A stretch of DNA of 64,000 nt from Cyanidioschyzon merolae (Eukaryota). The stretch lies in assembly GCA_000091205.1 (NCBI GenBank), contig AP006500.2, one strand, 5' to 3'. The notes below the pieces were generated by a model. That model searched no databases. It was not told the origin of the DNA and saw nothing but the letters and a program-made list of their open reading frames with translations. Shown in pieces: positions 1-59,063 of the stretch (its first letter is position 1; each line of letters opens with the position of its first letter). Both the position numbers and the translations under genes were made by a program.

Positions 1-330
1 TTATGCGGGCGTGGTGTGTTGGGCTTAAAGATAGTTGTTCTTTGATGAATAGTTTGTGACTAGTTTGCATCGCGCTCAGTGAGCGCACCTCGGAGATCAG
101 GCAGGCATGAGACACGACGCACATGCCGTTGTTGAAGGGGAACGTGATCCTGATCTCTAGCATGTAGATCTATTGTAAACGTTGTATTTTCGTTCAGGCC
201 ATAGCAACGTACAGTCTTTCAGTTCGATTGTGCTTCAAACCTCAAACAAGTCTAGTCAAGTGTTTTTTCGCAGTATATAACAGAAGGGTTCAAAGAGCGT
301 TCTTTCTCAAAAAACAAAAAAAGGAAAGCT

Positions 331-2761
331 ATGAAAAAGCAAGTGCACGATCCTGGAGGCCCAGTGTCGCCGGCTGCCAGAAAAAAACAAAAAACAGTGT
401 CGAGTCCAGAAGAAAAGGAAGAGAAGAAGGACCGAAAGGGGGATGCCCTACGTCGAAGGCGGCAAGAAAGACGACTGTACGACGAGATGGTGGTGAAAGC
501 CTTCCTTCTTGGACATATCAAGGATCCCTACAGGGAAAAGTTGCGAGACGCTATCGAAATACGTGTCGACTCGTACTCCAAGAGTATTGTCAAGGCGTTG
601 TCAGGACTGATGCATTTGGCGAGGGAGATGTATCGCGACGTGACGCACATGCAAACGGTCGAGATTCCAGACGATATCTTCGACAAGACGTTTATTCGCC
701 ACCTGATGCTTGGTACAGGGGAGATGCGGAGGGAAAATGAGCAGTACATGCCGTACACGAAAACTTCGCGCAATTCCGCTTCGAAGGTAATCGATACAGC
801 GGTGACGGAAATATTGACACATACGGAGTGAAAAAGTACATCACGAATCTGAAGAACCATCTGATCGTGAACCTCGAACGTTTCATGATACGCGCCGTAT
901 TTGGACTCTACCCGGGCATCTCTCGCTATGGGAAATGGGCGATTATCAACGGCATCACGAACGATCGCAAGCATGAAGATGAGGTCGAATTTGTTGACCA
1001 GAAGGCGTCAAAAGAGAGCACGAATGAAGCTGCTGTGATCCGTGCGGTTGGACAAGAGCATCGTGTGGTGCTCGGGCTGGTGCATCCAGCAGAAAAGGTA
1101 TAAGAGTTGAAAAAAGATAAGGAAAGATACGATTGTCTCCTCCTACGGTATTTCGTGTTTTTGGACCGTGAACTCGATCGCAAAGCGGAGATGAAGCTGA
1201 GTGAAGAGACAAATGGAGAGTGGGAGAGACGGAAGAATTTCCTAATGGGGAAGTGCTTCAACGTCGTTCCGTCATGCAATGCCAAGTCACATTTTGTTAC
1301 TATCGACTCCAGAATCCCTCACGGCATCATGAAGGAGATCAGTCCGGAGTTCAATGTTAACAGGGAGGAATTCTCCGGTGAAAACCGGATGACGTACTGG
1401 AAGAACATCTTCGATTTCAAACGCCTGAGAGTGAGCAAGCAAAAAGTGTTCACTGGGATAATCGAAACCGATGGAGTAGCCTTGTGTGTACACTATCGGC
1501 GGTTGAAGACAGATCAGCCAGTCCCTCCCTCGGCTGCGCCCATGACGAAGGATGAAGAAAACAAAGAGGCGGGTCCTGCAATGCAAGAGGTGGAGGACAA
1601 CGACTTTGTCGTTGGCGCGGCGGAGCATGAAGAAAACAAAGAGGAGAATCCTACGACTCAGTAGGTAGAGAATAACGACCTTGTCGTTGACGTAACGAAG
1701 GATGAAGATGAGAAGGAAGCGGACCCTGTGATGCAGGAGCTGAGGGGGAACGACCTCATCGTTGACGCGGCGAAGCATGAAGAAAACAAGAAGGCGGGCT
1801 CTGAGAAGCAGAAAGTGCAGGATAACGACTTTGCCGTTGGCGCTGACCCCGGAAACACAAATATCATAAGCATCGCAGCACCCACGCGCGCGGAAAATGG
1901 TACTCACGGTAACTTACGTCAGAAAGACATGCGTCTATTGAGGTTCTCGAGAGCGATATACAATCGATAATCGGGAATCATGAATGCGAGGAAGAAAATT
2001 GAGGCATGGAATGCAGGAATGGAGGATCACCTGGAAGCTATGAGCGAGGTGACGAGCTGCGGAGCGGACTTTGAAGCTTTTCGGAAATTCATGGAAGTTC
2101 ATAGTACCCATTGAGATGCGCTGTGGGAGGAGTATACAAAGCCCCGGTGGGCTCGTCTGCGTATGAATCTATACGGTGGGAGGCAGCGCGCATTCGCGAA
2201 TTTTTTCAATCAGTTGAGCTCCCTAAAGGAGGACGAGAGTCAGAGGCTCGTAGTAGCGTACGGAGCAGGGCGCTTGAAGACCCAAAAAAGGGGCTACGCC
2301 AGCTCCAACGACGAGAACGTACAAGGAGTGTGCACGGCGTTTTGTTACGATACCTGTAGATGAGTTTCGAGCATCCTATGCACACCGTGAACTGGGGTGT
2401 ACACTCCAGAGAGCGGAGATGGAAAAGTGCCAGAGGAGCCCTGAGGATATAAAAAAGTACGGACCGCTGACGGAGGAGCAAATGGAAAGGAGGGCAAAAG
2501 TGCGAGGGCAACTCGCGTTGGTGAGTACAACCCCCAAGCGGCAAGAAACGTATGGAGTTTGTGAACCGAGAATTTAACGCTGCCACCAATATCAGACGAT
2601 GTGCAGTGCTGGAGGAAAGACCTTCAAAGAAGACAAGAGTGAACTTTGTTGGACAACCTATCAAAGTCGAACTATATAAGAAAAAGTTGGAAGCAGTAGC
2701 AGGTAGCCTGTCCAAAAAGACCGGCAGGCGTCTACACTCCAGTTGGAGACTTCTTGTCTAG
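331..2761 (+). pseudogene. Fanzor/TnpB-like RuvC nuclease ORF interrupted by in-frame stops and frameshifts
   Basis: Frame +1 ORF 331-831 begins MKKQVHDPGGP. Frame 0 is readable from 828 to 2363 but carries in-frame stops at 1101 (TAA), 1662 (TAG), 1968 (TAA) and 2112 (TGA). There are frame changes near 830 and near 2335. The C-terminal RuvC-III region lies in frame +2 at 2552-2761. Confidence 0.6.
1500..1870 (+). repeat. Degenerate 75-80 bp internal tandem repeat (about 3.5 units) duplicating the RuvC-I coding segment
   Basis: Repeated peptides are [46 protein letters not shown] and [12 protein letters not shown]. Only the last unit keeps the GxDPG motif. Confidence 0.6.
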
Positions 2762-2833
2762 GCCGCGTTCGCCACTACTGTACACCGCTGGCGACAACGT
2801 TTTTCTTTTGAAAGGCGTTTGTTGTTGACGGTG

Positions 2834-4021
2834 ATGCCGGTTGTCGTGCTCTGCGGCTTGCCTCGAGCAGGCAAGTCAGCGCTGGCAAAGCGAATCGCTG
2901 AAGCAGCACCACCACACCTTAAACCAGTGACGATACTCTCAGATCGCGGCATAGAGGACTACGCTGAGCCGCAGCGCGAGAAGACTGCGCGCAGTCGTCT
3001 GCGTGCAGCCTTGGAGCGTGCACCTTACCGCGAACGTCTGGTGATCGTAGATGCTTGCAATCTCGTCTCTGGTTTTCGCTATGAGCTATGGTGCGTGACC
3101 CGCGTGCCCGCTGGAAAGCGTCAAGAGTCAATACCTCACGTGACAGTACTTATTAGAAGTAAGGCAGACGTTTCTGAAGTCTCCTGTGCTCATAGTCCGC
3201 CGGGATACCAGCGCTCCACTGCCGACCGGCCTTCGGCTGCAGCAGTGGGCCCAACGCGTCTTGTTGTCGAACCCGAACTGACGTCGCCGGAGAGGATCGG
3301 GCACGAGCCGCAAGCGAAAAGCGCCCGGTCGGCGAACGCAGATGCTTTGCGCTCTGTTCTGAACGGGCGATGTGAAGTGGCAGGTCCCAGACAACAGCCT
3401 CAAGCGGACAGCGACGTGGCAGCGAACATTGCCCGGGTACGAGAGCGCTTCGAATGGCCAGACCCGCAAGGCCAACGATGGGATCGACCGCTGTTCACCA
3501 TGTCATTGAAGGAGAGGGTTTGCTCGTACGAAACTCCGGATGGGTGCACGTTCTTCGAAGAAACGCAATGGGTCGCTTCCATCTATGATTGGATTTCAGG
3601 AGGCACTGCTCGGAAGGATTTCAAAACGACGTCACGAATGACGATCGCGACGCGTCAGACTCGCGTTCAATCCGCGGATAGCTACTTCGAAAGCGAGATC
3701 CGCAAAATCGAGGACGCTATTATCCAAGTGCTCTGCGCCGGAGATGAGGGCGAGCATCAACACCCCGGAACGGTGTATACGTACGACAAGTGTCCGCTTC
3801 GCCTTCCTGAATCGTACTTGCGACGGATTTTCCTGCTCGCGAATCAATCCAGTCGCCTGTATACGGTATCGCAAGATTTGCGTGCACATCGTCATCTCTT
3901 TGTACGTCGATATCAGAAACGACGGGTAGAGCAAGATTCGAGTGCTTCGGTGCAAGAGTTCATTCGGTCTCTGGAAGGATACCTTGAGCTGCGCGACCAA
4001 CAACGTCGTAGCGAACACTGA
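2834..4021 (+). CDS. KTI12: KTI12 homolog (Elongator-associated P-loop ATPase, PSTK-like)
   Basis: The protein starts MPVVVLCGLPRAGKS (P-loop, compare human MPLVVFCGLPYSGKS). It also has the LVIVDACNLVSGFRYELWCVTR and RWDRPLFTM motifs. The ATG is at 2834, inside the 2819-4021 ORF. Confidence 0.75.
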   Translation: MPVVVLCGLPRAGKSALAKRIAEAAPPHLKPVTILSDRGIEDYAEPQREKTARSRLRAALERAPYRERLVIVDACNLVSGFRYELWCVTRVPAGKRQESIPHVTVLIRSKADVSEVSCAHSPPGYQRSTADRPSAAAVGPTRLVVEPELTSPERIGHEPQAKSARSANADALRSVLNGRCEVAGPRQQPQADSDVAANIARVRERFEWPDPQGQRWDRPLFTMSLKERVCSYETPDGCTFFEETQWVASIYDWISGGTARKDFKTTSRMTIATRQTRVQSADSYFESEIRKIEDAIIQVLCAGDEGEHQHPGTVYTYDKCPLRLPESYLRRIFLLANQSSRLYTVSQDLRAHRHLFVRRYQKRRVEQDSSASVQEFIRSLEGYLELRDQQRRSEH

Positions 4022-14027: not shown

Positions 14028-14396
14028 CTAGGCAGTAGCTTCCATAGCGCGGTAACTTGCGGCATTCATGCTTCCACAGGGCCTAAGTTCGCGTCCGCGA
14101 TCCCACACAATGGACAAGTGAACTCCGCCGGGTGTGTCCTGCACCTCCGCCATCGACTGGGTTCGCTCAACGCATCCCCGGGGATTCGAGTTTGTGTATT
14201 GCTTCGGGTTTTCTTCATTGTAGATATCTAGGCTCAACGTCCCTTGCCTCATTTTCCGGGATGCTCGACAGTGGTGGGTATCCGAGGCATCCACCAGTGC
14301 CCCGCTCCAAATATGACGAGGCCCGTCTCGTTTCGGACAGGCCTTCTTAATGGCTTCCAACTGAATTGTGTTATACCCCCAGGTGCGCGTCATCAA
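14028..14396 (-). CDS. Small hypothetical ORF (122 aa) with a weak MsrB/Mss4-like C-terminal resemblance
   Basis: The segment GGVHLSIVWDRGRELRPCGSMNAASY loosely resembles MsrB GGHLGHVFDDGP...RYCINSAAL. Its 5' end abuts Fanzor-derived copy B. Confidence 0.25.
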   Translation of the reverse strand: MMTRTWGYNTIQLEAIKKACPKRDGPRHIWSGALVDASDTHHCRASRKMRQGTLSLDIYNEENPKQYTNSNPRGCVERTQSMAEVQDTPGGVHLSIVWDRGRELRPCGSMNAASYRAMEATA

Positions 14397-14907
14397 GTGC
14401 TTTTTTTCGCGGTTTACAGCAGAAGCGTTCCAAGTGTGTTTATTTTCAAAAAAAAAATCGAGGGCATGTTATGGACATGCAAGTCAGGGATCCTGGTGGG
14501 CCTCTATCGCTGGGTGCCGGAGAAAAACAAGAAAATCCTCATGTGATCGAGCGTCGAGCGAAGAAGAGCAGCTGGCGGAGAATCAGAAAAAGAATACTAG
14601 GGGCGATAAGCGAGATACGGTTTTCACCCGGCTGTACGATGACGAGACTCTTGCCGTACAGCGGGCACGAGTTGCAGTGATCTTTGTACTGGTTCCATCA
14701 ACCAGTTGCAATAGAATCGCGGAGTTCGTGAACCGAGATTCCATCGCCGTCATGGTTGTCAGCCGATTTACGTTGCTGAAGAGGAGACCCGCGGCGCTCA
14801 CGCGAGCCAACTTGTGGGTCAGCCTCCCCGGCTCGGAGTGTACAAGGAGAAACAGAGCCCGATAGCAGTCAGCCGGTCAAAAACGGCTGGGAGGCGTCTC
14901 CTTCCGG
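14349..14907 (+). mobile_element. Non-autonomous internally deleted Fanzor-family element (copy B)
   Basis: The 5' end actgaattgtg...tcaagtgctttttttcgcgg and the ORF start ATGGACATGCAAGTCAGGGATCCTGGTGGGCC match copy A. A remnant EFVNRDSIAV is followed by the 3' module gatagcagtcagccggtcaaaaacggctgggaggcgtctcc. Confidence 0.65.
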
Positions 14908-16862
14908 GTATTAAGTTTCGCTCCATGGTCTTGAAACGTCTATGGCTTTGCGGACTATCTAACTCGCCGGAAAATCGGGCTGTGCTGCAGTAGTATTTCA
15001 GCGCTTCCCTGTGGTTTCCTCTGTTGCTTCGTTTTCGTTCTCTTTGATGCAGAGTCAAGGAGACCGAACGAGTGCCCTTGAATTCAGGATCAAAGGAAAA
15101 ACGTGGTATCGCGTTGACAAGGTTTCAACTGATGACTCGAACAACCCGACGAATGTTTGCTGTGTCGAACATCGCGAAACGATTGGGTATCGTGCCAACG
15201 TGTCTTCCTGGTGCATCCATGTCGTATTTAAATACAACATTGAACTGCTCGCACTGGCCCTGCTTTTCGATCTTATTCCAGAACTTGTCTAGATATACAG
15301 CGTCGACATTCGGTGTGGGACCATAGCGCCGTCCGGATTCATATATGGATTTAGAGTTCTCGGTTGTGATTTGGGATAGGCTTCATTGTCGCCTTGGCAC
15401 TGGAATGCTTAACTTCACCGGATTCAGGATGATTCGCAACATCCCTGACCAAGGATGCGTAAAATAATCGATACCATTATCCACTGCATATGTACAAGAG
15501 TACACGCTTCTCATTTCCTAAGGTGTAGCACGCTCAACTCTAGCATTTTTCAAATTCCGATTTTCTGTTTCAGCGACACTCGAGAGCGCAGCAATGCGTT
15601 CCGCTTCATTGGCGATGCGGGAGACTCGACGTCGCCGCTTGGGGACCTGTTCACAAGCTCATGCCTAACGTTCACTGAGCATGTAACCTCAAACAATTAC
15701 TTCTGATCGAAGAGGCAAATCGTTCTGTCGTTGAGGCCACTGACGAAACCGTATTCGACGGCATCGTCATGTCTCCCGCGGAATATGTCCCCAGAAGCTC
15801 CTCTTGCCTTCTGTTTCTTTCTGTAGGGAAGTATCATGGACTCGGGCTTGAGTCATCAGAGCAATGGCTTCCGGTGAGGCGTGCGTCATCGCCTTGCGCA
15901 AAGGCAGCATGGACGGATCGGAAATTCTCGACTCGGTCTCCAGCAAGAATTCGCCTTCCGGTACTTGTTTGATCGTAGACAGCATCGCGTTGAACAAATC
16001 GTGTATCGAATGCGACAACGTGTGTTTGCTCGTGCCGCGTCCAGGAAACGCTCCGAGCGGATCACCCAGACAAAGTCCAGTATCGTATTCTACGGCACCG
16101 GGCCCCGAAACGGAGGTTTGGATCCAAGAGAGCCCTCTCCATCTATGAAAAGCACGTACCGAGCGCGATGAATCAAGCGTTCATGCGCGGCAGAGTAGTT
16201 CCCAGAAAAAAAAAGCATATAGAAGGTGGACGTACGCGAACATCTACCCACAGTCAAGTGTCATCGATACGAATCGCGCGCCGAGGCGGTGTACAAAGGA
16301 AACAAAAAGCCCACGCGATGTATCGATCGTAACTTTTCCCGCTGCATGGAATGCGTCGATTAAAGCCGGAAGCAGCAAAGTCGGAATTCAAACGCTGCGA
16401 TCAACATCCTTAGACTGCTTACAGACGATCTCGAGGGAAAGGAGAAACCGTCGAACGTAAACCTAGAAATAAAACATAGGAAATACAGCTTTCGCAGAGC
16501 AATCCTTCAAAGGCTGGTGTTGATAACAACGGGAAGAAGCTCCAGTTTATTGTGTACATTCGAGTTCATGAAATGAACCCGTTCCATTTTATGCCGACAT
16601 TCCTGGAGCGGCACGACAGGCAACGCAACGACCTGCCGGCTGGCGACGCGTAGACCGTGGCGCCACCCCGTGTCCCGCACCGCACGGCACCGCACAGCAA
16701 CGCGCTCTTCAAGCGTACGCTCTCTGAACGCCGGGTGTGTCGTCAACGACGAACGCCCCTGAGCCGAAACCCTGTGAGTCCTTCACAAGAGTCTGGTGTT
16801 TCTAAATTGCTGTGAGCGCGTGCGGTGGGGTTTTCTTGGCCTGCTTTTGGATCGAAACTCGA

Positions 16863-27162: not shown

Positions 27163-27559
27163 GGACATCACGCAGTGCATTCATTTTCAAAAATAAGAAA
27201 TCTAATGGATGCGCTGGGTTGTACACCTCAAAAGGTTGGGATGGAGAGAAGGCAGTGGAGCGCTTCGGCGATTGAAAAGCACGGAGAGCTGACAGAGCAC
27301 CAAACGGCACTGAGGGCAAGAGTTCGAGGAATCCTTGCAATGATGAGTACCACCAGCATCAGTAATCGCATGGAATTCGTAAACCGAGGCTTCAACGCTG
27401 CTATCCATATCAGACGATGTACGTTGTTGAAGACGAGACCCGGGGATTTGAGGCGAACCAACTTCCTGGGGCAGCCTCTGATGCTCGAAGTGTGCCTAAA
27501 GAAACTGATTCCGATCGCATGCGGCAGATCAAAAAGACTGGGCGGCGCCCGTCAGTTGG
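27163..27559 (+). mobile_element. Non-autonomous internally deleted Fanzor-family element (copy C)
   Basis: The 5' start of the ORF is retained (ATGGATGCG...). The ORF 27175-27564 encodes RARVRGILAMMSTTSISNRMEFVNRGFNAAIHIRRC, colinear with the copy A C-terminus. It ends with the 3' module gatcgcatgcggcagatcaaaaagactgggcggcgcccgtcagttgg. Confidence 0.65.
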
Positions 27560-28358
27560 TATGAATTCAGTCTGTATTCATTTATAGGAACAGAAACGAA
27601 CCTTTATTTAGGAGCGAGATAACAATCCCGTTCTCTATCTACGATAAGCGTTGATAGGGGGAAAGTTTCCGCATGGTCGAGAGTTCGCCTTCTAGGCGGA
27701 AGGCCAGCGAGACGGACGAGTCTACCAAGCTCGTGCTTCATGCTTCCTCCAGTGGCAAGTGTTTTAGTGAGATCTGAGCAGCTCGTCCGCAAAACGCAGC
27801 TCATTCTGGGATCAGGTGCAGTTAGGCTGCATCTGGGCGTCGCCCTGGTCGCAGTGGACTCCTAGGATATCGCTTCACGCTGCCGCAGGCTGTACGTCTG
27901 CCAGTGCAGCTTGCAGGCTCGCAGAATGATCATATACTTCGACTCCGTATCAGGTGAAGCGTTCCTCGATCCGACGTGCTCAGTGGCGTGCCAAAGCCGT
28001 TCTATCCCCATGATACATCTGCTCCAGCGATATAAGCGCCACGGCGAGCGCACAAAACAGGTACTCGGTGAACGATACAACATACGAAACGGCCAGTATA
28101 TCCGAAAGCAAGTATGGGAGATGGAAATTCAAGGTAGTTGCTTCATGACGGGCGCTTTCCCGAAAGCCATGATCCATCCCGCAATCTGGGATTCACGGTC
28201 TATGTAAACGTATTTGCATCGAAAAGGAATCGGACATAAGTGCGGGAACCGCTTTCTGTCGAGAGCGACGTTCCCTTGTATGCCCGTGGCCTCCTCTGGC
28301 TGTGCACGGTCTTCATGCGTCGTTCGCTTCCATCTTTTCCTGATTTGAGACGCTGAGG

Positions 28359-36720: not shown

Positions 36721-39700
36721 GCATCTTTCGCGCCATTGCCGGATGTGTGCCTCGTTTACGGATGGTATGTCGGATCGATGCATCCAAACAAAACCATCGG
36801 AAGCGCGAGCGGTGCCATGGATTAGGCGAAAACTAGCTTTGTGCTCTACATTCGCCTTTGCACCTGCATACTCCTAGTTTAATGATGGTGTCGAATCGAT
36901 GGATTCTCCAGGATTCCATCGGATGTGAGAGCATTGCTGGCAATCAGGGGAAAGACTAGTGCTCGACTGGAAACGCAACCACATGGCCGTATGCACGATC
37001 GCTCGCGGGAGCGTGCACGCATGCAGAGCGTTCGCGTGGTGTTGCCTGCGCTCGCGCTCAGCTTGAACGGCGACTTGAGGCGCTTGGAGACGCTTTGGGA
37101 GGAGTGAAAATTCGGACAAAGCTGTACCAGTGGTCCACTTGGCATTCGTATGATATGTAGTTGCTCCTGCGGTATTCGTCACAGCGTTATATGCTTGGTC
37201 TCATCGGAGGAATGCATGGTTTGTAATATGAATTCGAAATGACTTTTACTCGCTTTATGGTTTCAATTTGTGTTTTTGTGTTATGCGGGCATGGTTGCGG
37301 TGCTGGGCGCCCCGCAGATCACCGTCCTACCTCCGAGTCATATGACACTGGGCCACCGCACTGATTGCCGGGCGTCAGCTTTGCGATATTTTCTGAGTTT
37401 TTTGCTGGGTGTACAGCCTTGGGATGAAGCATGAAGCAGTAAAGGGCTATCCGTTCATGCGTAGTTTTAGGACTTTCGGTCGTCATTTCGGAGTGGCACG
37501 ATTGACACATTGGTGCTGGAATTCGCAACAACATCGGCATCAAGATGATTCGCGACGCCCTCGAACAAGGGTTCCATTCATTACCGATATCATGATCTAG
37601 CTCATACGTACAAGCACCGAATATTGTTCTGTCCTGTGTGTAGTATGCGCACATGAAGCATTCTTCAATTTTTCGATCTTTTTTGTTTCATGGGAACTCG
37701 GAGACGCGGCTACTCGCTCCGCTGGGTTGATGAGGGGAAAACTCGAGAGCGTCGCTTAACGACTGCTTTAGGAGGTGATGCCTAAAGCTCAATGAATTTC
37801 GCAAATCAATGTATCGATTCCGTTCGAAAGGCATAGCCACCTCTCCTCTTGGCAATCGGCTACATGGAATTCTGCTGCTGCTGCAACAGCAGCAAGATAG
37901 TTCTCAGGCGATATGTTTCCAGGTGCTCGCGCCTCTTCTGTCTGCATGGAAAAGAGTCTCGGACACGGAATTTACTCATCGCAGTGACCGCTTCGAGTGG
38001 ACAGTGCTACGCTGCTTTTGCACCGTACGAGCGCATACAGAACGACCTTTCTCGACTCGAGTTCCAGCCTGGATATTCCGTCCGGTACTTGTTTCTGCAT
38101 GAATAGCATCGGGTGCCACAAATCCTCTATCGAATGGAACAGCATGCGCATGCGTGTGCAATGGAGATACTAGTCGCTAAGCGGACCACCCAGAGGCAGC
38201 CCGTGAACCTGGGGTACGGCACAGGGCTTGGAAGGGGGCCAGCGCTTCGCCGGGTGCCTTCTATTCCCTCCAACGCCATGTACCGAGCGATGCAGCAAGG
38301 CGTCATACGCCACCGGAATGCCCCCAAGGTAAAATATATGGTGGATACGTGTAAAAGCGCTGAACAAAGTCCAGTGTCGCCGCTGCGAGGGAGACACCCA
38401 GTTCGTATGAAAAGAAAATGGAAATGAGAAGCGAAGCCTTTACTGCAGCCTTGCGCCTGTGCATGAAGTTTGTCGACAACAGCCGGGACCACCAAAATCG
38501 GGAAGCGAACGCCACCGTTAACATCCCTCCACTGCTGACAGCGGAGCTGGGGTTCCAGAAGAGCTGGTCTTTTTTAAAGCCGGATATGAGTGAGCAAAAA
38601 GGAAGCGACCACCGAGAATCCAGCAAAGGCTTGCGTTGAAGACTATAGAAAGAGACCGAAACTTTAGAGTTTAGCCTTAATTGGCAAACTGGACCCCTTC
38701 TTCTAGATGCTGACTGGCATGCACCACCCATCTCATCTAAAAATCGCTACACACTGTCAGGCGGCTCCCCGTATTGCCTATCACTAAAACTCACAGGTTT
38801 CGGCGACGCGCTCAGTGCGTGCCATATGCCGAACAGCAAATCCGTCTGATTCGAGACCTGTTGTGCGGGCGCCCTGAGAAAGGCCATTTCGCACAGACAG
38901 CCAATGGTCCGACTGCGCGTGCTCCCTCGACACCCTGCTTTGAGACTGGCCGTAAGGCGCCGCATCCCGTGGACGACTCTTACATTATTGACAGTGTTTT
39001 TACACATTCCGCTCGATGCACCAGTTGGAATATGAAAATGCCTCGCATTGGCAGTAGAATTCATATCATGGATATGCGGCATGCGTCAGTTCGGAAAGCT
39101 GGATGAGCGGGACGGCCGGTCACCGAAAGAAGAGCGCAACCTCAGAGCTGATCGACGCAGTCCCGAGCGAGCCAGTACGTGAGTTTGTGCTATCTTCGGC
39201 CGGCTGACCGGTTCCCAACTGCGTCAACTATCTCTGTTCGGCAGTCGGCAGCTACCTCCATGTAGTTCAGCGAATGACGCTTCTCGCGGACGCGCACTGG
39301 GCTGCAAGGATCGACTCGAGCTCAAAACCGGTTCTAGCACGCTGAATACAAGCTCGGTTCCGTGCAGCATTTTGCGCTTATCAATCAAGAGCCCGTCCAG
39401 CACAATGGTAACGGTGCGGTAGTCCATTCGCACTCAATAAAGTGTCCATGAAACGCAACTCGGACAAAAACAAACAACCTGCGGCTGTTCACGGGCACAC
39501 TGCCTACGCCAGCATATTCGTCACTGTCATCGCACTCTTTTCCGCGCGCGCAGCTACCAAACCTAGCCCTGAATCGTCGATGAAATTGAACCGTTGTTGC
39601 GGCATCCGCCACGTTTGTAGCCGTTTCAGAAGAAAGCTCATAATATCGCCCAGGCAGTCATGAAACGAAGCGCCGTGGTTATGACGTCGCATCGATGATA

Positions 39701-40560: not shown

Positions 40561-40918
40561 CTCACGGAAGACGACTGCAGGCTCCGGGAGGCTTATCGCG
40601 CCGGTCAAGCACCTTGTCAGATGTCGAGGCTCAACGCTGGTGCGTATGGGCGAACTCAAATACGTGTCCACCGGATCAAGGGCACGATGTAAGCTCCAAT
40701 GATCATGAGACGCAATGAATTAGTCAAGTCCTACATAATCGGTTCCCCTGAGGCGCAAAGAGACAGCAGCTTGGGCAGGACTGTGAATTGGTCGCTGTCC
40801 TGCGAGCCTAGTGAAAGAACGGTGTTGCTTCGTGGTCGTTTCGTGGACCCTGACAACCGAGACAAACCGCTCTGTCAATTCTTTCTCCGGAATTGTGTTC
40901 CGCCCCCCAGATGTGTGT

Positions 40919-41417
40919 ACTGAATTGCTTTTTCACAATTTATACCATGCGCATTCGAAGTATGTTTATTTGAGGAAACAGAAATCTAAGTGAAAGGCAT
41001 GGACATGCAAGTCGGCAATCCTGGATGACAGTCAATGCCGGCTGCCGGAAACAATCCTCCTCTTGTCGACCATCGAGCGCAGAGGCGCAAGTGACGACGA
41101 AGACGAAGAGGGCGAATAGGCGAAAAACAGTGCCTCCCGACGGGACGATAACGAGACTTTTGTCGCACAGAGGGTACGGGTCTGAGAAATCCTTGCAAAG
41201 GTGCGTTCAACCGGTGTCAATGTACGCAAGGAGTTCGTGAGCCCAGACCTCAACGCCGCCGTCAATATCACACAATGTGTAGCACTGGAGACTAGACCCG
41301 CGGAGCCGACGCGAGCGAACTTTGCAGGGCATCCTCTCCCGCTCGATGTGTACAAGCAGAAACTAAAACCGATAGCAGTCGGACGGTCGAAAAGGGATGG
41401 GAGGCGTCTTCCAATGG
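40919..41417 (+). mobile_element. Non-autonomous internally deleted Fanzor-family element (copy D)
   Basis: The 5' end actgaattgcttttt and the ORF start ATGGACATGCAAGTCGGCAATCCTGGA are retained. A remnant KEFVSPDLNAAVNITQC (RuvC-III with D intact) is followed by the 3' module gatagcagtcggacggtcgaaaagggatgggaggcgtcttccaatgg. Confidence 0.65.
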
Positions 41418-48716: not shown

Positions 48717-49874
48717 ACCTGCTTTTGCACCTGTCTCGGATTGAAATGGATCACAGAGCTGCTCATTCTGTTCCTGCGCTGAGGCTTCTTTCCGAACTGG
48801 TTCTAGACATAGAGAACCTCGACATTCGAAGTGCAGCAACACGAGCATTCGGATCGATACCTAGTTCTAGGATGCGGGGGCGTCTTTTCCGAGTGATATA
48901 TTCGAAGAATACTTGCGGATGGAATTCGTTGCGTTGCTGGAGTCAAAATGATTCGCGGAGTGTCATCGAAGATGCGTTCGTAAAATATCCGATATCATTA
49001 AGCAATGGATATGTACGAGCCTCCAGTGTGCGCCTGTGCTGATGTGCAGCATCCCCGTACCGTACACTCTTCAAGATCCCTGTCTGGGTATCTCATGGAG
49101 AATCGCGGGCGCTGTGATTCCGGTCGATTGATGGACAATGATAGATACTCGACGTCGCCTGCGCACGACTGCCTCACAAGATCTTATCGCAAGTTCAGTG
49201 CAACGCTCGCGTCCAATAGCCGATTCCGTTCGAAAAGCAAATCCTCCTGTCTCGATCGCGATCGACGAAGCGGGACGCTGCACCGAGGTGACGCCCCCGA
49301 CGGGATACGTCCCGAGACGATCCCGTCTCTCCAGGCTGCATAGACAAGTATCTTGGACCGGGACTCGAGTCATCGGAGGTACCGCTGCCGGTGGATCGAG
49401 CGTCACTGCTCGGCACAAGCGAGGAGCGTAGACGGATCAACGTATCGCGACTTGACCTGTTGCCAGGGCTCCTCTTTCGGTGCTCGGTTCGTCACGTACA
49501 ACATCGCGTTCCACGAATCATCGATCGAAAGGGAGTGCGTTCGCTCGCACGTGTATCGGTCGGATTACGTGCCGCTGGGATCGCAAAGAACAAGCACGTG
49601 ATCACAGTGTACGGCAATGCCGGCGGTTACGGACGAGGGCATCGACGGTATCCTTGGGTACTCGTCGAGGGCATGCAGCGCTCGATGATGCAAGTATTCG
49701 TGCGCCACTGGGCGGCTCTCGGAGGAGGAGTAGGGAGCGTGCTGGGCACCAGACGGCACCAGACCACAGCCAGGTATCGACGATGCCAGGAGCACAGCGA
49801 GGCTCTATACGAAGAAGATGAAAATAGCAAGCGAGGCTTCGGTCGGAGCTTTCGCCTGTCTTTGGAATACGTTG
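48717..49874 (+). repeat. Left arm of a large inverted repeat pair (about 1.15 kb, about 99% identical to 57918-59063 on the opposite strand)
   Basis: ORF 49480-49821 and ORF 57973-58314 (minus strand) encode 113-aa products differing at one residue. The boundaries were mapped by divergence after ctgcttttgcacctgtctcgg and ctttggaatacgt. Confidence 0.85.
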
Positions 49875-57917: not shown

Positions 57918-59063
57918 GTCGACGTATTCCAAAGACAGGCGAAAGCTCCGACCGAAGCCTCGCTTGCTATTTTCATCTTCTTCGTATAGAGCCGCGCTGT
58001 GCTCCTGGCATCGTCGATACCTGGCTGTGGTCTGGTGCCGTCTGGTGCCCAGCACGCTCCCTACTCCTCCTCCGAGAGCCGCCCAGTGGCGCACGAATAC
58101 TTGCATCATCGAGCGCTGCATGCCCTCGACGAGTACCCAAGGATACCGTCGATGCCCTCGTCCGTAACCGCCGGCATTGCCGTACACTGTGATCACGTGC
58201 TTGTTCTTTGCGATCCCAGCGGCACGTAATCCGACCGATACACGTGCGAGCGAACGCTCTCCCTTTCGATCGATGATTCGTGGAACGCGATGTTGTACGT
58301 GACGAACCGAGCACCGAAAGAGGAGCCCTGGCAACAGGTCAAGTCGCGATACGTTGATCCGTGTACGCTCCTCGCTTGTGCAGAGCAGTGACGCTCGATC
58401 CACCGGCAGCGGTACCTCCGATGACTCGAGTCCCGGTCCAAGATACTTGTCTATGCAGCCTGGAGAGACGGGATCGTCTCGGGACGTATCCCGTCGGGGG
58501 CGTCACCTCGGTGCAGCGTCCCGCTTCGTCGATCGCGATCGAGACAGGAGGATTTGCTTTTCGAACGGAATCGGCTATTGGACGCGAGCGTTGCACTGAA
58601 CTTGCGATAAGATCTTGTGAGGCAGTCGTGCGCAGGCGACGTCGAGTATCTATCATTGTCCATCAATCGACCGGAATCACAGCGCCCGCGATTCTCCATG
58701 AGATACCCAGACAGGGATCTTGAAGAGTGTACGGTACGGGGATGCTGCACATCAGCACAGGAGCACACTGGAGGCTCGTACATATCCATTGCTTAATGAT
58801 ATCGGATCTTTTACGAACGCATCTTCGATGACACTCCGCGAATCATTTTGACTCCAGCAACGCAACGAATTCCATCCGCAAGTATTCTTCGAATATATCA
58901 CTCGGAAAAGACGCCCCCGCATCCTAGAACTAGGTATCGATCCGAATGCTCGTGTTGCTGCACTTCGAATGTCGAGGTCCTCTATGTCTAGAACCAGTTC
59001 GGAAAGAAGCCTCAGCGCAGGAACAGAATGAGCAGCTCTGTGATCCATTTCAATCCGAGACAG
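57918..59063 (-). repeat. Right arm of the large inverted repeat pair
   Basis: Reverse-complement match to 48717-49874. ORFs 57885-58403 (minus strand) and 49391-49894 (plus strand) are near-identical. Confidence 0.85.

Follow-up and report, generated by a model that had tools for sequence, protein, structure and literature searches.

The window analyzed here, a 64,000-nucleotide stretch of the Cyanidioschyzon merolae genome (contig AP006500.2) in which two long open reading frames (ORFs) exactly match BAM82548.1 and BAM82551.1 of C. merolae 10D (1,253,087-bp record), contains at positions 14353-14899 a short sequence, copy B. It had been picked out from the letters alone (the sequence-only reading) as an internally deleted derivative of a Fanzor element. 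Our analysis indicates that B is, in all likelihood, both ancient and inert, a copy of a shortened version of CMe-1, the transposon family of this organism that carries Fanzor1. B lies within a gene-poor, repeat-rich interval, between a D-lactate-dehydrogenase-like and a respiratory-burst-oxidase-like gene. A self-BLAST of the window revealed four related sequences, namely a long copy (A), two short copies (B and C) and a 3' fragment (D), and the 3' module of the family is carried by all four. The parts of B, its long relative A and its sister copy C are as follows (consensus positions are those of the published family consensus, see below):

14353-14899, plus strand: core of copy B, with a weak tail to ~14957
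14353-14472, plus strand: 5' leader remnant of B, consensus ~790-905 (nhmmer, blastn, alignment)
14473-14639, plus strand: N-terminal coding remnant of B, consensus 906-1057, the ATG and ~50 Fanzor1 codons (tblastn, alignment)
14639-14640, plus strand: deletion junction of B, between these two bases (alignments, motif positions)
14640-14899, plus strand: C-terminal coding remnant of B and conserved 3' module, consensus 2819-3082 (nhmmer, tblastn, alignments)
14900-14957, plus strand: probable diverged 3' tail of B (alignment with the old copies E and F; weak evidence)
67-2817, plus strand: long copy A, a CMe-1A pseudogene (three-frame translation, alignment to the environmental locus L001, blastn, Tandem Repeats Finder)
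40875-41409, plus strand: copy C, with the same internal deletion as B (blastn, alignment, nhmmer, shared derived sites)

Copy B and its Fanzor1 parent family

The parent family of B is already published for the C. merolae genome. CMe-1A, described as the single Fanzor1 family of this organism, comprises ~150 copies per genome that are ~80% identical to a ~3-kb consensus; it has no terminal inverted repeats (TIRs), its target-site duplications (TSDs) could not be determined, and the family was left unclassified (Bao & Jurka 2013 Mobile DNA 4:12, PMC3627910). The 3169-bp CMe-1A consensus and the 734-aa CMe-1 protein used throughout this study were taken from the Additional files of the same paper. 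Copy A, which blastn places with its positions 83-2817 on consensus 660-3169, is interrupted by several stops and frameshifts.

The homology of the parent family to a validated Fanzor1, SPu-1/SpuFz1, is supported by an hhalign comparison with the family alignment (probability 78%, E 1.8e-5, 329 columns), in which the RuvC-I D, the position of TS-plus-finger and the NRD come in the same order. The C-terminal motif of Bao & Jurka (D ... [TS][TS]-x-x-zinc finger ... RD) is present in the parent copies, where it ends in EFVNRD and the zinc finger reads HH..C..C instead of C4. P0001, one of the proteins of the family, has 69% identity with the CMe-1 protein of Bao & Jurka. Pfam scans of the conceptual A protein and of the B ORF gave no matches, and those of P0001 and of a more distant protein, P0023 (see below), gave only sub-threshold matches to Cas12f1-like_TNB. 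A single-sequence search of the PDB returned nothing, while the profile search returned SpuFz1 (8gkh) at an E-value of only 0.13. For P0001, AlphaFold2 gave, on an alignment of 16 sequences, a model with a mean pLDDT (predicted local distance difference test score) of 33. Pfam, the PDB searches and the model did not confirm the Fanzor nature of the family; the support comes from the hhalign comparison and from the identity of P0001 to CMe-1.

B matches both ends of the coding region of the long copy by several methods. By blastn, 14393-14534 aligns with A 256-394 (73% identity, E 1e-16), and on the CMe-1A consensus 14364-14534 aligns with 802-969 (76%, E 4e-27) and 14721-14899 with 2903-3082 (67%, E 1e-7); tblastx aligns 14703-14900 with A 2536-2734. 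Profiles made from seven family 5' ends and from 44 family 3' ends match 14353-14588 (nhmmer, E 2e-34) and 14699-14900 (E 9e-20), respectively, and the published CMe-1 protein aligns by tblastn through its residues 1-20, 645-697 and 696-726 (E 3e-8 for 645-726). A global alignment of B with a deleted composite of the CMe-1A consensus yields 68.7% identity, so that B is ~31% diverged from the consensus. With a size of ~550-600 bp and consensus 1058-2818 missing, B is a fragment or derivative and departs from the full-element structure (~3 kb with a 734-aa Fanzor1). The similarity spans non-repetitive sequence beyond the A-runs, so the objection foreseen in the sequence-only reading, that it might be restricted to low-complexity A-runs, does not apply. 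The central proposal of that reading, an internally deleted derivative of a long Fanzor copy, is borne out, and its coordinates (14349-14907) proved correct to within ~10 bp of the core given above.

The coding remnants are decayed. The ATG ORF of B (14473-14679, stop at 14680-14682) does have 69 codons, but the claim that the first ~70 codons are kept needs correction: in that frame only the first ~20 codons are homologous to the family (tblastn, residues 1-20 at 14471-14530). Beyond codon ~20 the frame is lost through two indels near 14528-14548, of +2 and +12 nt, and the homology goes on in another frame up to RLYDDE, which corresponds to codon ~50-51 of CMe-1. The 69-codon ORF is open largely by chance. 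On the C-terminal side, the anticipated RuvC-III remnant is indeed present, in a degraded form: IAEFVNRDSIAVMVV at 14716-14760 aligns with the family motif MEFVNRDFNAAINI. From the Fanzor motif set B keeps the final RD only (NRD, 14731-14739), and a further 1-nt deletion lies near 14812. With its frameshifts and the stop in the ATG frame, B contains no intact ORF, and it encodes no functional protein.

A set of eight ORFs located within or adjacent to B, C and D was looked up for exact identity in a collection of 15 billion proteins that includes the NCBI annotation, and none was found. A minus-strand ORF at 14819-15058 (79 aa) was said to follow directly on the 3' side of B; in fact it overlaps the 3' end of B. 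This ORF likewise has no exact entry in the collection, and Pfam gave no match for the longer translation of the frame that contains it. The partial duplication reported in the leader of B corresponds to imperfect repeats of 9-14 nt, which are visible in the family consensus too and are therefore not specific to B.

The deletion junction and the sister copy C

At the junction of B, consensus position 1057 (...CAGTACGA) is fused to 2819 (TGACGGAGG...). Alignments across the junction, of the kind that had been recommended as a check, place the breakpoint between 14639 and 14640; in the coordinates of A, 483 is joined to 2468, and the sequence lost amounts to 1,761 bp as measured by the consensus and 1,984 bp as measured by A. 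The deletion is bounded by short similar motifs, ...GTACGA/CGAG... and ...GC/TGACGGAG... (the slash marks the breakpoint), and both sides show an imperfect GAC-GAG microhomology. Besides the leader, the remaining sequence holds the ATG, ~50 codons from the N-terminal side and the final 88-96 codons, together with the 3' module. The jump to the C-terminal remnant described in the sequence-only reading is thus real as a deletion, but the junction does not coincide with the RuvC-III remnant, which begins 76 nt downstream of it. An inverted repeat spanning the junction (14628-14665) was considered as a hairpin and rejected: it is not conserved in C and was treated as chance. Internal deletions recur in the family, as exemplified by the environmental locus L069, in which consensus 1950 is joined to 2394; D may be another case.

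The junction of copy C (between 41148 and 41149) is base-for-base that of B, and the blastn alignment of the two copies (68.6% identity over 545 bp, E 2e-45) runs unbroken across it. B and C are ~31% diverged from each other. On the consensus, C 40891-41054 corresponds to 802-961 and C 41184-41409 to 2854-3082. The 5' limit is the same in both copies (profile positions 149 and 153). Within the 3' module the identity between B and C, 70.9%, is the top value for either copy, and the two share 10 exclusive derived sites, compared to no more than 5 for any other pair. These include a run that adjoins the junction (ACTYTTGYCG against GCAAATGG). The flanks of B and C are unrelated. A shared junction, a shared 5' limit, shared derived sites and unrelated flanks together argue that the deleted form was copied at least once, and they support the descent of B and C from one deleted ancestor that would have inserted at two sites. 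The flanks upstream of the two copies yielded one weak match, of 23 nt, which was rejected: its score of 15 equals that of the best shuffle and its spacing differs between the copies, so it was treated as chance.

On this basis the following course of events can be envisaged. An ancestral element lost ~1.76 kb of its ORF (consensus 1058-2818) between two similar short motifs. The cause was presumably a switch of template or an aborted gap repair while the element was being copied or repaired, which is the usual origin of internal-deletion derivatives of DNA transposons. The short form would then have been copied to at least two unrelated sites, yielding B and C. This copying, to which the common junction, the common derived sites and the unrelated flanks point, would presumably have used family machinery supplied in trans and have needed mainly the 3' part of the element. 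Both copies would subsequently have decayed neutrally. The earlier claim of mobilization in trans can be upheld as far as propagation of the short form is concerned, given the sister copy C; as for the trans mechanism itself, we infer it, the CMe-1 family being devoid of TIRs and its TSDs not having been determined (PMC3627910).

The proposed history resembles that of Ds (derived from Ac) and KP (derived from the P element), where a deletion between short microhomologies likewise removed the coding region and the derivative was propagated. On the other hand, Ds and KP keep both terminal inverted repeats and depend on a known transposase, whereas B has no identifiable termini and belongs to a family with no known transposase.

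Element ends and competing explanations

The ends of B were compared with those of young full-length copies carried by related strains from the environment (in L001, L005/L006 and, twice, L007). These start at consensus ~648, whereas B starts at ~790. They share 140-150 bp more upstream (consensus ~648-790) and ~85 bp more downstream (3083-3169), the latter including a hairpin, GCCGCCA-N14-TGGCGGC, which in A reads GTCGCCA...TGGCGAC (2775-2805); a palindrome is found near the 5' start of the young copies. The 3' subterminal hairpin is lacking in the old copies B, C, E and F. Overall, this comparison suggests that old and young copies of the family have different 5' and 3' ends. The old copies E and F extend weakly for ~55 nt past the 3' module, with no hairpin, and because of this weak continuation B, too, probably extends to ~14957; the local score between B and E in the 3' tail is 13, attained by one of 300 dinucleotide shuffles, which is weak evidence. 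That B, C and D might share one 3' terminus, at GGAGGCGTCT, was considered and rejected, as D reaches consensus ~3110 and B and C have a weak tail that is homologous to that of E and F.

Judged from the alignments, the termini of the young family are not retained by B. This bears on two statements of the sequence-only reading. The 5' end said to be retained is not that of the element as seen in the young copies (~790 versus ~648), and the structure said to be the one expected of a non-autonomous element is not present, since neither terminus is kept, the outer ~140 bp on the 5' side and the 3' hairpin both being gone. Compared to CMe-1A, B comes from the same organism and the same sequence family (aligned to ~790-1057 and 2819-3082 at ~69% identity); the published description has the copies of the family as old (~80% identical to the consensus), TIR-less and with TSDs that could not be determined. 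Unlike CMe-1A, B is devoid of positions 1058-2818, the outer 5' segment (~648-790), the part at 1-647 that resembles TE-N2_CMe (a 635-bp element, see below) and the 3' hairpin, and at ~69% identity it is more diverged than a typical CMe-1A copy.

Several observations weigh against B being a propagated short element. B and C have neither the 3' hairpin of the young copies nor the outer ~140-bp 5' segment, and consensus 648-790 has no match in or upstream of B or C, even when profiles are used; this makes the mobilization of B and C harder to explain. The old long copy F begins at the ATG and gives no help in defining the 5' end of the old subfamily. No TSD was discernible by eye in the flanks of B. 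The comparison with an empty site, suggested as a further check, did not furnish one either: six related environmental contigs reach across the site (99.1-99.3% identity), and every one of them carries B. Finally, a metagenome scan for short copies gave 337 family matches, the best 80 of which were examined; among these were orthologues of C, the old copies E (L019-22) and F (L057/59/62 and L095) and the deletion variant L069, but no third copy of the B/C type. As only two short copies were found, a "family" of the short form means two members.

In three further contigs, which carry an exact match to the D-lactate-dehydrogenase-like neighbor, the sequence breaks off 140-480 bp ahead of B. L002, one of the three, ends in a short local duplication (its positions 1-82 match the window at 14069-14150 and 14205), which is probably an assembly break near a repeat.

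The alternative that survives best, rather unlikely in our view though worth keeping in mind, is that B owes its 5' truncation and its internal deletion to one-ended copying of a rolling-circle-like type, anchored at the 3' end. It denies a two-ended non-autonomous element, and as such refines rather than excludes the explanation preferred here, a short form that was copied and then decayed. The 5' extents within the family are variable (consensus 1, ~648, ~790, 905 and 2645-2739) with the 3' part kept, and the 3' module is present in all four copies of the window. The young CMe-1A copies have a 3' subterminal hairpin and a 5' palindrome. Similar copies are known for CRe-1, CRe-2 and CRe-3, the Helitron2-borne Fanzor1 elements of Chlamydomonas reinhardtii, in which 5' truncation is often coupled with internal deletions and the 3' ends are intact (PMC3627910). 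B resembles them in its shortened 5' end, internal deletion and retained 3' region; unlike them, it shows no Helitron termini, target motif or TSDs, and CMe-1 is unclassified. Neither a Helitron protein nor a terminus motif or target motif was identified here, the hairpin is missing from the old copies, and Bao & Jurka did not classify the family. Moreover, the metagenome loci were chosen via the 3' module, so that the retention of 3' ends among them is biased and amounts only to a lead.

It is far less probable that the deletion occurred twice, at one microhomology hot spot, in two long copies inserted on separate occasions, in which case no short element would have been mobilized at all. The imperfect repeat at the junction (GTACGA-CGAG and CTGACGGAG) could favor recurrent deletion, other internal deletions are known in the family (L069 and possibly D), and the 70.9% identity of the B and C 3' modules is only slightly above the values for other old copies (63-69%). 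A recurrent event would nevertheless have to reproduce a base-identical junction together with the same 5' limit, and the 10 exclusive derived substitutions, twice as many as in the next best pair and including the run at the junction, also speak against it. Common descent of the two copies from one deleted ancestor is therefore preferred.

We give very little credence to the idea that B is a functional guide-RNA-only satellite, retaining a promoter-like leader and a 3' guide-RNA region in the service of the Fanzor proteins of intact copies. Fanzor guide RNAs are normally encoded in the 3' region, and the leader and 3' module are indeed what is kept in B, C and perhaps D. Between B and C, identity rises to 83% in the final 41 nt of the module (14859-14899), compared to 69% overall, and a long-range pairing, GGAC..CCTC / GAGG..GTCT, is kept in 7-8 of eight copies, with one compensated change in D. 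In contrast, RNAalifold found no consensus structure for 32 copies of the 3' region, four candidate hairpins showed no covariation beyond shuffled controls, the covariation of the young 3' hairpin was not above control, and Rfam had no match in the window. By eye, B has lost or disrupted three hairpins of the young consensus (CTGGAG/CTCCAG, CGTCT/AGACG and the 3' hairpin). The polymorphism of B is not below that of its surroundings: it accounts for 12 of the 96 variable columns in a 6.76-kb intergenic alignment of related strains (2.1% for B versus 1.4% overall), which means that B is not conserved above background. B thus shows no sign of conserved RNA structure or constraint. The broader proposition, that derivatives made of leader and 3' module (B, C, perhaps D) are or were guide-RNA-only satellites of a eukaryotic Fanzor, is just as improbable. 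If true, they would supply (or have supplied) guide RNAs or be copied via the 3' end using Fanzor protein and transposition functions of intact CMe-1 elements, as a eukaryotic counterpart of the bacterial TnpB-less IS200/IS605 remnants.

The weakest candidate, reverse transcription of a spliced or rearranged Fanzor transcript, can be set aside as hardly credible: a transcription start might account for the point at which B and C begin (consensus ~790, with 115 nt left before the ATG), and the deletion could mimic an intron, but there is no poly(A) tail in B or C and no TSD was found, the junction reads as incompatible with GT...AG boundaries, C. merolae has very few introns, and beyond the stop of the ORF the homology seems to go on into the element's 3' tail.

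Copy B is an inert relic, old and long dead, and it matters little alone. Its recognition as a Fanzor remnant from the raw sequence was nevertheless sound. What is known of CMe-1, with its long copies and the TE-N2_CMe element, gains a minor addition: a short form of old age, with a defined deletion junction, that would have been copied at least once. Deleted copies that were propagated mark the parts required in cis and are relevant to the question of how Fanzor1 elements without a transposase move.

Neighboring repeats and other copies of the family

Two further repeats of the CMe-1A group lie side by side in the window:

27173-27580, plus strand: fragment D, covering ~370 bp at the 3' end of the family, from consensus 2737 to ~3110 (blastn, tblastx, tblastn)
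28221-27588, minus strand: a copy of TE-N2_CMe, consensus 1-633 at 82% identity

For D, blastn aligns 27209-27479 with consensus 2737-3010 and tblastn aligns CMe-1 residues 613-723 (E 9e-32). Directly upstream, at 27173-27211, there is a 38-nt leader-like stretch that ends in ATGGA. Its local score against the leader of B is 16, attained by one of 500 shuffles, and in a whole-window nhmmer search of its own it reached E 4.6, which is not significant. D may represent a second, independent internal deletion, in which consensus ~912 would be joined to ~2737. The TE-N2_CMe copy is arranged tail-to-tail with D, a few tens of bases from its end.

TE-N2_CMe is a 635-bp element identical to the first 635 bp of the CMe-1A consensus (PMC3627910). 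Like B, it is a TIR-less repeat of small size that is non-coding and is associated, in the same genome, with CMe-1A. B differs from it in sharing nothing of consensus 1-635 and in being made of the leader, the ORF start and the ORF end; by sequence comparison, B is not a copy of TE-N2_CMe.

Just downstream of B, at 15160-16100, lies an old unclassified dispersed repeat, which recurs in the window at 37276-38159, 48979-49547 and 58241-59054 (minus strand) and in the environmental loci L005, L006 and L029. A minus-strand frame within this repeat has the look of a decayed coding sequence and gave no Pfam match. Inside the repeat, 15551-15617 (minus strand) matches marginally the outer 5' segment of CMe-1A (~697-763, E 0.024).

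The long copy A contains within its Fanzor ORF, at 1546-1843, a 75-bp (25-codon) tandem repeat in four copies; the unit is present once in the published consensus and one to five times in environmental copies. The published CMe-1A consensus itself looks composite. A, L001 (2671-5416) and the plus-strand copy of L007 (8917-11410) start at ~648-660 with unrelated DNA upstream, while three other long copies also carry consensus 1-647, the TE-N2_CMe part; the observation covers also L005 8342-11647 and L007 8893-5767.

Some of the environmental loci show further rearrangements. Two 3' fragments in inverted, head-to-head arrangement were seen in L019-L022 (537-1687), L045/L061 (824-1762) and L085 (1-1690). 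The deletion variant in L069 (1-1759, consensus 1950 joined to 2394) still yields a called protein of 562 aa, P0012, which represents 18 member sequences. P0023, a 633-aa protein from a JGI contig of 2551 bp, is only 32% identical to the CMe-1 family and has a weak match to Cas12f1-like_TNB, which suggests that samples of this kind contain another, distant lineage of Fanzor-like proteins.

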